A stretch of 64,000 bases of DNA from contig CM119267.1 in the NCBI GenBank assembly GCA_051294375.1, forward strand, positions 23,986,111 through 24,050,110. Reading direction: 5' to 3'. Of this stretch, positions 2-63,988 are shown one piece after another. The notes under the pieces were generated by a model. That model was not told the origin of the DNA and made no database searches. It saw only the letters and a program-made list of their open reading frames with translations. Made by a program: the position numbers and the translations under genes. Source of the DNA: Paraspadella gotoi (Eukaryota; Animalia; Chaetognatha). How positions within the stretch are numbered: the first letter of the stretch is position 1; the number at the start of each line of letters is the position of its first letter.

Positions 2-3000
2 GGTGAAAAGGGAGATCAAGGAGACAAAGGAGACCAAGGAGACAAAGGAGACCAAGGAGACAAAGGTAACCAAGGCGACAAAGGTGAAAAAGGTGATCAG
101 GGAGACAAGGGTGATCAAGGAGACAAAGGAAATCAAGGAGATAAAGGGGATCAGGGAGAAAAAGGTGAAAAGGGGCATCAAGGAGACAAGGGAGATCAGG
201 GTGACAAGGGTGACCAAGGAGACAAAGGTGACCACGGAGACAAAGGCGAAAAAGGAGATCTGGGAGATAAGGGTGACCAGGGTGATAAGGGTGACCAAGG
301 AGACAAAGGAGTCCAGGGAGACAAAGGCGAAAAGGGGCATCAAGGAGACAAGGGCGACCATGGTGATAAAGGTGATCAAGGAGATAAAGGTGAAAAAGGG
401 GATCAGGGAGACAAAGGAGGTCAAGGCGACAAAGGTGACCAGGGAAAAAAAGGTGATTATGGAGACAAGGGGGAAAAGGGTGATCAAGGAGACAAAGGTG
501 ACCAAGGAGACAAGGGCAACCATGGTGTCAAAGGTGACCATGGGGACAAAGGTGAAAAAGGTGAACAAGGAGATAAAGGTGACCAAGGAGACAAGGGCGA
601 TCAAGGAGACAAAGGGGACCAAGGAAATAAAGGTGAAAAGGGTGATCAGGGAAACAAGGGAGATCAAGGAGAAAAAGGCGACCATGGAGACAAAGGTGAA
701 AAGGGGGATCAGGGAGATAAGGGAGACCAGGGAGAAAAAGGAAACCAGGGAGACAAAGGTGACCATGGAGACAAAGGGGAAAAAGGAGATCAGGGAGATA
801 AGGGAGATCAGGGAGACAAAGGGGACCAAGGGGACAAAGGAGACCAGGGAGAGAAAGGAGAAAAGGGGGATCAAGGGGACAAAGGAGATCAAGGAGACAA
901 AGGCAACCAAGGAGACAAAGGAGACCTAGGAAATAAAGGTGAAAAGGGAGATCAAGGAGACAAGGGAGATCAAGGAGATAAAGGAGATCAAGGATACAAA
1001 GGCGATCAAGGAGACAAAGGTGAAAAGGGTGATCAGGGAGACAAGGGTGACCAAGGAGACAAAGGATATCATGGAGATAAAGGGGATCAAGGAGACAAAG
1101 GTGAAAAGGGGGATCAGGGAGACAAGGGAGATCAGGGTGACAAGGGTGACCAAGGAGATAAAGGAGACCAAGGAGACAAAGGCGAAAAAGGAGATCAAGG
1201 AGATAAGGGAGACCAGGGTGATAAGGGTGACCAAGGAGACAAAGGATACCAGGGAGTCAAAGGCAAAAAGGGGGATCAAGGGGACAAGGGAGATCAAGGA
1301 GACAAAGGCAACCAAGGAGACAAAGGTGAAAAGGGATATCCGGGAGACAAGGGAGAAAACGGAGAAAAAGGTGACCTTGGAGACAAGGGAGATCAAGGAG
1401 AGAAAGGGGAAAAAGGAGATCAAGGCGACAAAGGAGATCAGGGAGAGAAAGGTGATCAAGGAGATAAAGGTGCCCATGGAGACAAAGGTGAAAAAGGAGA
1501 TCAGGGAGATAAAGGTGACCAAGGAGACAAGGGTAATCAAGGAGATAAAGGAGAGCAAGGAGACAAAGGTGAAAAAGGGGATCAAGGGGACAAGGGAGAC
1601 CAAGGAGACAAAGGCAACCAAGGAGACAAAGGGGACCAGGGAGACAAAGGTGAAAAGGGAGATCAGGGAGACAAGGGAGATCAGGGAGACAAGGGTAACC
1701 AAGGAGACAAAGGGAACCAAGGAGACAAAGGCGAAAAAGGAGAGCAGGGAGATAAGGGAGATCAAGGAGATAAAGGAATCCAAGGTGATAAAGGGGACCA
1801 AGGAGACAAAGGCGAAAAAGGAGTGCAGGGAGATAAGGGAGTTCAAGGAGATAAAGGAAACCAAGGAGACAAAGGTGACCAAGGAGAAAAAGGTGAAAAA
1901 GGAGATCATGGAGACAAGGGGGACCATGGAGATAAGGGCAATCAAGGAGAAAAAGGAAACTTAGGGGACAAAGGCGAAAAAGGAGACCAAGGAGAAAAGG
2001 GAGACCAAGGAGACAAAGGAATGCAAGGAGAAAAGGGGGATCTTGGTGACAAAGGTGAAAAGGGAGATCAGGGAGACAAGGGAACTCAAGGTACAAAAGG
2101 CAACCAAGGAGAAAAAGGAGACCAAGGAGACAAGGGAGAAAATGGTTTTCAAGGAGACAAAGGAGACCAGGGTGATAAGGGTGATCAAGGTGATAAAGGT
2201 GACCAAGGAGACAAAGGACAAAACGGTGATCAAGGAGACAAGGGTGAACATGGAGAAAAAGGAGATGGAGGAGACAAAGGGAATAAAGGTGACCAAGGAG
2301 ACAAGGGAGACCATGGTGATAAAGGCGCCCAAGGAGATAAAGGCGAAAAAGGAATTCAGGGTGATAAAGGAAACCAGGGTGAGAAGGGTTTCCAAGGAGA
2401 GAAAGGAGAACATGGGGATAAGGGTGAAAAAGGGGATCAGGGTGAAAAAGGAAATCAAGGTGACAAGGGTGATCTAGGAGACAAAGGGGACCAAGGAGAC
2501 AAAGGTGAAAAAGGAGATGAAGGAGATAAGGGAGATCAAGGAGATAAAGGAGGTCAAGGAGAAAAAGGGGAACAAGGAGATAAAGGCGATAAAGGATATC
2601 AGGGAGACAAAGGAGACCAGGGAGACAAAGGTGATCAAGGAGACAAGGGGGAGCAAGGTGACAAAGGTGAAAAAGGGGATCATGGAGACAAGGGAGACCA
2701 AGGAGACAAGGGAGACCAAGGAGAAAAGGGTGATCAAGGAGACAAAGGAGAAAAAGGAGATCAGGGAGACAAGGGGAATCAGGGAGAAAAGGGAGATCAG
2801 GGAGACAAAGGAGTTGAAGGAGACAAAGGTGAAAAGGGAGATCAAGGAGAAAAGGGGGATCAGGGAGAAAAGGGAAACCAAGGAGACAAAGGGAACCAAG
2901 GAGACAAAGGTGAAAAGGGAGATCAGGGAGACAAAGGTGACCAAGGAGACAAAGGTAATCAAGGAGATAAAGGAAACCAAGGAGATAAAGGTGAAAAAGG

Positions 3001-63400: not shown

Positions 63401-63988
63401 AAGGAGACAAGGGGACTCAGGGAGATAAAGGAGACCAAGGAGACAAAGGTGATAAAGGAATGCAGGGTGATAAGGGCAACCAAGGCGACAAGGGAGTACA
63501 AGGAGTCAAAGGGGACCAAGGAGACAAAGGCGAAAAGGGTGTACATGGTGATAAGGGAGCTAAAGGTGACAAGGGTTTGGAAGGAGACAAAGGAAAACAG
63601 GGTGACAAGGGAGTGCAAGGTGATAAAGGTAATCAGGGAGAAAAGGGTATGCAAGGAATGCAAGGTGATAAAGGTGAGAAAGGAATGCATGGTGACAAGG
63701 GTGTCGCTGGAGAAAAAGGTGAACAGGGAATGCAAGGCGCTAAAGGAGATAAGGGACACCAAGGAAACCAGGGTGTTAAGGGAGTCAAGGGCGATCAGGG
63801 GGCTAAGGGAGAACAGGGAATGCAGGGCCAAAAGGGTGACAAAGGAATGCAAGGAGCAACGGGCTTACAGGGTCCTCAGGGATCACAGGGACTTCAAGGT
63901 GAAAAGGGTGAGCATGGACATAAAGGCGTTCAAGGAGACAAAGGACCTCAGGGTGAACAAGGCGGTCGACCCATCTACTACTTTTCAC
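60420..63988 (+). CDS. Gene 3 collagen exon, 3' part
   Basis: Gly-X-Y repeat ending GEQGGRPIYYFS then C|GTAAGT phase-1 donor, equivalent to the gene 1 and gene 2 exon ends; its last ~120 codons align with gene 2. Confidence 0.85.

Follow-up and report, generated by a model that had tools for sequence, protein, structure and literature searches.

Organization of the locus

The 64,000-nucleotide (nt) stretch of Paraspadella gotoi contig CM119267.1 analyzed here (the window, to which all positions refer) is animal-like DNA with AT-rich introns and harbors three related genes, termed genes 1 to 3, that encode giant collagen repeats. In genes 1 and 2, the repeat is followed by a predicted ZP-like module, a sushi domain, EGF and SEA domains and a transmembrane segment (Table 1). 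Three purine-rich blocks of the plus strand (2-9221, 39216-45538 and 50592-63988) encode the Gly-X-Y triplets. Gene models, with exon borders taken from open frames snapped to GT-AG sites, all lie on the plus strand, and thus the three co-oriented paralogs proposed in the initial annotation were recovered.

In gene 2, ten GT-AG exons downstream of the collagen exon form a single open frame of 705 residues that ends with a stop codon at 49607. The post-collagen exon series of gene 1 is the same, with equal intron phases save for one shifted intron. Protein identity between both genes amounts to 29% over the 340 residues that follow the collagen, 47% for the sushi domain and 49% for EGF plus SEA (53% for the SEA half). 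All 11 cysteines compared after the collagen are aligned, ten in the ZP-like unit and one in the sushi domain, and the similarity score of this region is 270, compared to a maximum of 65 over 300 shuffles. The proposed match of gene 1 to gene 2 from the collagen onward is therefore supported by exon series, phases and identities, but not for the second EGF, most of which is missing together with its splice acceptor around a 10-N run (within 28738-28757), be it a gap or a deletion. Gene 3, said to match up to the collagen end, does possess the predicted signal exon and a collagen exon that reaches a donor at 63988, but the latter is broken by a 7-kb inverted copy. A search against Rfam gave no match across positions 9200-50700 of the window.

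Table 1. Coordinates of genes, exons and other features in the window. E, expectation value of the Pfam match; "spliced contig" refers to record 17 of sequencing run X8.
Feature	Position	Strand	Remarks
Gene 1 collagen exon	2..9221	+	At least 3,070 Gly-X-Y codons; 5' end beyond the window
Gene 1 ZP-like exons	9721-9914, 10060-10176, 10538-10653, 11201-11328, 11419-11601, 20502-20605, 23415-23600	+	Predicted only: GT-AG borders, open frame, cysteines all common with gene 2
Gene 1 sushi exon	24793..24991	+	Pfam Sushi, E 0.0013
Gene 1 cbEGF and SEA exons	26966-27195, 28235-28454	+	EGF_CA, E 2.6e-06; GSVIV motif
Gene 1 last-exon remnant	28760..29023	+	Final part of second EGF (EGF2), then stalk, membrane-spanning segment and short tail; beginning lost at N-run 28748-28757
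Gene 2 exon 1, predicted signal peptide	38920..38995	+	76 nt; basic start and 12-residue hydrophobic run, by eye
Gene 2 collagen exon	39216..45538	+	About 2,090 codons, 6.3 kb; Pfam Collagen, E 5e-37 over the last 211 codons; 3' end within spliced contig
Gene 2 ZP-like exons	45618-45820, 45909-46028, 46107-46350, 46524-46685, 47606-47709, 47830-48021	+	Spliced contig; cysteine and motif pattern; last exon holds basic site and hydrophobic patch
Gene 2 sushi exon	48140..48338	+	Pfam Sushi, E 0.0014, 19.4 bits (cut-off 20.7); spliced contig
Gene 2 cbEGF and SEA exons	48422-48657, 48866-49085	+	EGF_CA, E 7e-09; SEA, E 0.029 (half domain); GSVIV; spliced contig
Gene 2 last coding exon	49210..49607	+	EGF2 (EGF_3, E 5e-07), stalk, transmembrane segment (hydropathy), 18-residue tail, stop; spliced contig
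Spacer, gene 2 stop to gene 3 start	49608..50244	+	637 nt; unbroken cover by gene 2 spliced contig
Gene 3 exon 1, predicted signal peptide	50245..50308	+	X8 contig exits at the exon's donor; next intron at zero depth in X8
Gene 3 collagen exon	50592-53354, 60419-63988	+	Two assembled pieces, about 2,230 codons in total; donor at 63988; later exons beyond the window
Inverted, indel-rich copy of 48239-53354 and 60419-62044	53355..60418	-	Interrupts gene 3 collagen
Gypsy-type long terminal repeat (LTR) retroelement	12360..18224	-	In intron 6 of gene 1; LTR pair with 97% identity; pol frame of 1,241 codons; Pfam matches to reverse transcriptase, RNase H and integrase

Splicing and expression

Among 11 listed public sequencing runs, nine contain the tail of gene 2. 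None of them is recorded as RNA, while run X8, in which 49% of the gene 2 tail words are present (approximately the exon share), was guessed to be so. Four runs were aligned to the locus: X8 alone gave the spliced form, with a depth per bin in line with the exon shares, and the three others consist of unspliced pieces. Record 17 of X8 (3,118 nt, depth 96.5, zero differing letters) aligned in eight listed pieces that span 45360 to 50307; three exons outside these pieces match gaps in the record exactly, and all offsets agree to the base with the 11-exon chain. In gene 2, splicing is seen from the end of the collagen through every downstream exon past the stop codon, and both the junction 45538/45618, singled out beforehand, and the whole chain behind it are present in spliced form. 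Since this contig joins the collagen end to all downstream exons, gene 2 does not lack a joining transcript. Splicing of gene 2 from end to end, as first suggested, thus holds from the collagen end to the stop, but not, as assembled, at the entry into the repeat, where the frame stops at 39704 and exon 2, with 6323 nt, is not a multiple of three.

The contig continues past the gene 2 stop through the 637-nt spacer and gene 3 exon 1, skips the next intron and resumes in the gene 3 collagen exon. The spacer comprises four AATAAA motifs, and an acceptor-like AG directly precedes the gene 3 ATG. Overlapping ends, read-through and a two-gene transcript fit this contig alike, and a contig is no proof of a single molecule. 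Furthermore, four bases (GATC) are inserted at 45736, on a GATC site, in run X2 only, which is likely a proximity-ligation junction rather than an allele.

The collagen repeat

The arrays comprise the long Gly-X-Y repeat that defines the collagen superfamily, as evident from unbroken runs and the Pfam Collagen match. They are, nevertheless, far from the proline and hydroxyproline richness of animal collagens: only 10 prolines were found in 6,821 collagen residues (<0.3%). This near-absence of proline was overlooked in the initial annotation, as were the frameshifts and the probable fold-back artifact described below. In gene 1, the 1004 triplets counted contain one proline and no in-frame interruption, with uninterrupted runs of 586 and 419 triplets, while the gene 2 array has about 30 short in-frame interruptions. 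The Y position is taken by Lys (51-55%) or Gln (36-43%) and the X position mainly by Asp, Glu or Asn. Consequently, the composition is one of Gly, Asp, Lys, Gln, Glu and Asn, with Pro, Thr and Ser together below 2%. KGD and KGE account for 380 of 1004, 193 of 623 and 183 of 585 triplets in the three genes (31-38% per triplet). According to PMC11923368, which like the other PMC articles below is cited from excerpts, KGE and KGD make up 3-6% in collagens generally, while KGD reaches 13% in viral proteins. Among the best 120 of 5,532 database matches to the repeat, each collagen contains at least 10.6% proline, and the longest unbroken run measures 275 triplets.

Inter-chain salt bridges formed by KGE and KGD slow unfolding, and the bacterial protein Scl2 is held in this way without hydroxyproline (PMC11923368). 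We infer that the arrays of all three genes would likewise form a triple helix held by Lys-Asp/Glu salt bridges. Hydroxylation or glycosylation of the abundant lysines is possible. Giant size alone is not new, given that annelid collagens of 7,719-8,859 residues are known, which are proline-rich (PMC12403961). All three collagen exons close with a short stretch of aromatic residues and a donor in phase 1 (9200-9221, 45519-45538 and 63969-63988); these ends are possible candidates for a nucleation or junction element.

Reading frame and probable assembly faults

As assembled, the collagen register of gene 2 shifts frame at about 39690-39757 (a net shift, with the entry-frame stop inside it) and at 44850-44926 (compensated). 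Gene 1 contains an out-of-frame patch of 110 nt with stops at 3779-3886, the shift being restored within 3779-3926, and gene 3 shows eight frame switches. We regard these frameshifts as likely errors of the consensus within the repeat, given that the frame stays open over long stretches with many near-stop codons and the downstream exons are intact. It is very improbable that they are real and that the cluster is decaying, in which case its transcripts would give no full-length protein or only short forms. Such decay would agree with the frame switches in all three collagen exons, and with gene 1 carrying a retroelement and lacking EGF2 at the gap. However, two of the lesions found in genes 1 and 2 are of local extent, with the frame restored, and stretches of 1,700 codons remain open although many of their codons could become a stop by a single change. 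In addition, the downstream exons are not only intact but conserved and in agreement with the reads, whereas the assembly is visibly noisy at this locus.

In gene 3, the segment 55267-60316 corresponds in reverse complement to 48239-53354, with 97% identity, 122 gap positions against 31 mismatches, and 53365-54884 mirrors 60419-62044. In the non-repetitive part of the copy, 60 gap positions stand against 9 mismatches, while a natural inverted repeat of the window has 6 and 20, respectively. The LTR pair of the retroelement, with 10 gap positions and 1 mismatch, indicates that indels are a general weakness of the consensus in this region. Within 4.6 kb of the inverted collagen, the frame changes 21 times. 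Moreover, the window holds a single copy of an adapter-like 12-base motif, which we take to match the PacBio hairpin adapter at its end, and this copy lies at the fold point 53356. A fourth gene at 53355-60418 was therefore rejected on the indel excess, the frame switches and the motif; the segment is likely a long-read fold-back artifact built into the assembly. If it is removed, the gene 3 collagen comprises about 2,230 residues and is near that of gene 2 with about 2,090, all array lengths being uncertain in this noisy assembly. The idea that the paralogs provide different rod lengths thus stands only where gene 1, with 3,070 residues or more, is set against the others, but genes 2 and 3 are similar.

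The ZP-like module

The region between collagen and sushi domain is split over six exons in gene 2 and seven in gene 1, and Pfam, Atlas and modeling were applied to single exons. In both genes, six cysteines span 134-136 residues and fit, by eye, the ZP-N cysteines C1-C4 plus one extra pair. A linker of 24-25 residues follows this ZP-N-sized unit. The subsequent ZP-C-sized unit has four cysteines that by eye correspond to C6, C8, CA and CB, while C5 and C7 are both absent. Furthermore, both paralogs keep the FXF motif (as FKF) and a basic pair (NRR in gene 2, KRR in gene 1) followed by a hydrophobic strand, the putative patch.

The bonds of ZP-C are C5-C7, C6-C8 and CA-CB, and the paired loss of C5-C7 is described for CUTL-28 and NompA, which is the pattern as read here (PMC7456536). 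Polymerizing ZP proteins have linkers of 22-26 residues and the FXF motif, and their N-terminal domains branch off the filament, while non-polymerizing ZP proteins exist as well (PMC7737619). Atlas placed clusters that contain ZP (PF00100) at ranks 2, 3 and 6 with scores of 0.84-0.87 and ZP on 28-49% of their members, which are leads only; recognition stayed under the tool's threshold.

Taken together, the post-collagen region is very probably a ZP module. The ZP-like module of the initial annotation is hence backed by motifs and cysteines, but not by a profile or structure match: a fold search with low-confidence models of single-exon fragments (pLDDT, the predicted local distance difference test, of 54 and 46) found no match, and PDB sequence searches with two exons gave nothing meaningful. 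This lack of a profile or fold match would fit another two-domain beta-sandwich that serves as collagen trimerization domain, all the more as collagens normally need such a domain at the C-terminal side and no other is evident. We nevertheless deem this improbable, since several independent ZP features occur in the right order and spacing in paralogs that are only 29% alike, and the Atlas lead points to ZP as well.

Sushi, EGF and SEA domains and the membrane anchor

Pfam supports the Collagen repeat and both EGFs, while sushi falls just under the cut-off and SEA is weak; for gene 1, no Pfam SEA match was obtained. Both genes possess a GSVIV site, which resembles GSVVV, the self-cleavage site of the MUC1 SEA domain (PMC4456727), and their SEA lies next to the membrane as it does in transmembrane mucins.

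The predicted signal peptides of genes 2 and 3 have basic residues, a hydrophobic run of 11-12 residues and a common A-E-G motif that by eye fits a signal-peptidase site. At the other end, genes 1 and 2 share a 19-residue hydrophobic segment followed by a short tail. With this segment 18 residues from the C-terminus and the N-terminal hydrophobic run, the sequence supports the type I topology that had been assigned to these proteins.

Relatives and previous descriptions

Two word-indexed searches, limited to proteins of up to 2,000 residues, gave no match: the EGF+SEA exon yielded 7 candidates and the two-paralog SEA alignment 1,730, none of which matched. A HMMER search with the EGF+SEA exon led to 853 matches crowded by multi-EGF proteins. 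Among the best 150, three span the whole exon and none contains six consecutive Gly-X-Y triplets; for 62 of these 150, Pfam (top five families each) listed neither ZP nor SEA nor collagen. Three single-exon proteins on metagenome contigs of 735-1,495 nt (singleton clusters) cover the whole EGF+SEA exon at 38-42% identity with the same exon ends, and thus the stalk exon occurs in other organisms.

The collagen search returned mainly collagen VII with at most 45% identity among the best 120 of 5,532 matches; none of these 120 listed ZP, sushi, SEA or cbEGF families, while the biased composition may mask true relatives. Metagenome scans confirmed 0 of 592 candidates in one case and 2 of 74 in the other, both being weak EGF matches without collagen. 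None of these searches led to a full-length relative; two of them covered proteins of no more than 2,000 residues, and in two others unspecific EGF or collagen matches dominated. Likewise, no description of the architecture was found in open-licence main texts of PMC and bioRxiv, while supplements or database annotations could hold one, and the available excerpts of PMC13361971 and PMC9290575 do not describe it. The architecture is consequently unmatched by any described one in the searches run, which were weak. It is best read as a new mosaic of a ZP coat protein and a transmembrane mucin, the repeat of which is a salt-bridge-stabilized, nearly proline-free collagen.

Repeats and mobile elements

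The Gypsy-type element, which contains several short N-runs, is a passenger in gene 1 intron 6. At 32069-35727, inverted repeats of 940 nt (97% alike) surround 1.8 kb without a long open reading frame, with an inner inverted pair of 81-97 nt at 32994-33709; this is probably a non-autonomous DNA transposon. An interspersed element of very high copy number, with a summed depth thousands of times that of its flanks, is found in a gene 2 intron (46830-47470) and, in opposite orientation and 71-79% alike, in a gene 1 intron (22033-22771). Between genes 1 and 2 lie a five-copy tandem array of 67 nt and two microsatellites (31013-31336, 37049-37150 and 37314-37385), and the gene 1 introns contain several short hairpin-type elements of 60-150 nt.

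Proposed function

We lean toward the view that the predicted type I proteins are cut free at the cell surface and polymerize into ZP filaments that carry long collagen rods in an outer coat. The signal peptide would route the chain to secretion, with the C-terminal helix as its tether. Three chains, registered by the membrane, might then close like a zipper into a triple helix that starts at the ZP end, with Lys-Asp/Glu salt bridges in place of hydroxyproline. At 0.29 nm per residue in a triple helix, the rods would measure about 0.6 µm in genes 2 and 3 and at least 0.9 µm in gene 1. Cleavage at the basic site would free the hydrophobic patch and allow the ZP modules to polymerize, and since each rod would join three ZP modules, rods could both bristle from the filaments and cross-link them. 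The sushi-EGF-SEA-EGF-transmembrane part would stay behind as a stalk, which might be split again at the SEA site.

Several points weigh against this proposal. None of the 13 single exons of the ZP region matches the Pfam ZP profile, the cysteines were numbered without alignment to real ZP sequences, and for a second ZP-region exon (46107-46349) the Atlas lead was an unrelated family. The basic sites NRR and KRR are minimal and fall short of a full furin site. How a rod of three chains fits a filament of ZP pairs is unexplained. A coiled coil in the stalk was dropped, since 33% and 28% of shuffled sequences attained its heptad moment, which is thus not significant. Finally, expression is based on one run of one study whose RNA label is a guess, and the collagen exons are frameshifted as assembled.

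The weak basic sites, together with the existence of non-polymerizing ZP proteins (PMC7737619), would also suit a tethered, mucin-like brush. Here, the trimers would stay anchored, the charged collagen rod would replace the repeat rich in proline, threonine and serine (PTS), a non-polymerizing ZP would act as junction or binding unit and SEA cleavage would serve for shedding only. The order of signal exon, giant repeat exon and EGF-SEA-EGF-transmembrane part resembles MUC3, MUC12, MUC13 and MUC17, and GSVIV is conserved in both paralogs. Moreover, the stalk of about 300 residues is 47-49% identical, compared to 29% in the ZP part, and seems costly to discard. In contrast, both paralogs retain the linker length, the FXF motif and the basic site with its patch, all as in polymerizing ZP proteins. 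We consider the brush the main, yet unlikely alternative to polymerization and release. Cuticle, glycocalyx, egg coat and adhesive are all candidates for the tissue or role of the proteins.

One might go further and tentatively envision a new class of coat, in which ZP filaments are cross-linked three at a time by collagen rods of 0.6-0.9 µm held by salt bridges only, encoded by a tandem cluster with genes 2 and 3 on one transcript; as a whole, this picture is doubtful. If the proposed reading is true, a single chain would unite collagen rods with ZP filaments, the two principal components from which invertebrates build outer coats, and a type I membrane collagen would break the type II rule of the described transmembrane collagens. 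Because domain shuffling is common in invertebrate matrix proteins, the surprise lies in the combination more than in the architecture by itself. With 586 unbroken triplets and almost no proline, the gene 1 repeat would offer a natural experiment on the folding and stability of very long triple helices by salt bridges alone, and it could serve as template for recombinant collagen made without prolyl hydroxylase.

Comparison with known systems

The ZP proteins of apical matrices, such as uromodulin, tectorins, the nematode cuticlins and FBN-1 or Drosophila NompA, are alike in the predicted signal peptide, the order of ZP-N, linker and ZP-C, the FXF motif, basic site, patch and anchor, and also in a long N-terminal part that would project off the filament. 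In contrast to them, this N-terminal part is a collagen of 2,000-3,000 residues here. About 300 residues of sushi-EGF-SEA-EGF are placed between ZP and membrane, C5 and C7 are absent and ZP-N has an extra cysteine pair.

Transmembrane mucins with one SEA domain (MUC1, MUC3, MUC12, MUC13 and MUC17) share the type I topology, the single giant repeat exon, a SEA with GSV site and the short tail, and SEA flanked by EGFs is a feature of transmembrane mucins. However, the present repeat is Gly-X-Y, nearly without Pro, Thr and Ser, instead of the defining PTS repeat, and the ZP-like and sushi modules are additional.

The transmembrane collagens, comprising the MACITs and their kin (XIII, XVII, XXIII, XXV, COL-99, colmedins, ectodysplasin and class A scavenger receptors), are comparable as membrane-tethered, likely shed collagens. 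Type II topology is stated for MACITs, colmedins, ectodysplasin and class A scavenger receptors alike (PMC7848082), in agreement with the initial annotation, whereas here the anchor is C-terminal and the repeat, nearly free of proline, has several times the length of theirs.

The giant cuticle collagens of annelids join a globular domain to a triple helix of great length (PMC11766948), a combination predicted for the present proteins as well. However, they reach 7,700-8,900 residues with 33-40% proline in X and 22-33% in Y (PMC12403961), while the part of gene 1 in the window gives at least 3,070 residues and is not proline-rich. The repeat itself has analogs in bacterial and viral collagen-like proteins such as Scl2 and the KGD-rich viral ones, which are hydroxyproline-independent and rich in salt bridges as well (PMC11923368). 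In contrast to these, the present genes are spliced animal genes with metazoan domains and even more KGD and KGE.

Thus, by the defining features tested, the three-gene family represents neither MACITs nor mucins nor annelid-type cuticle collagens. Judged from its predicted modules, it is a likely, albeit unproven, family of ZP-module proteins.

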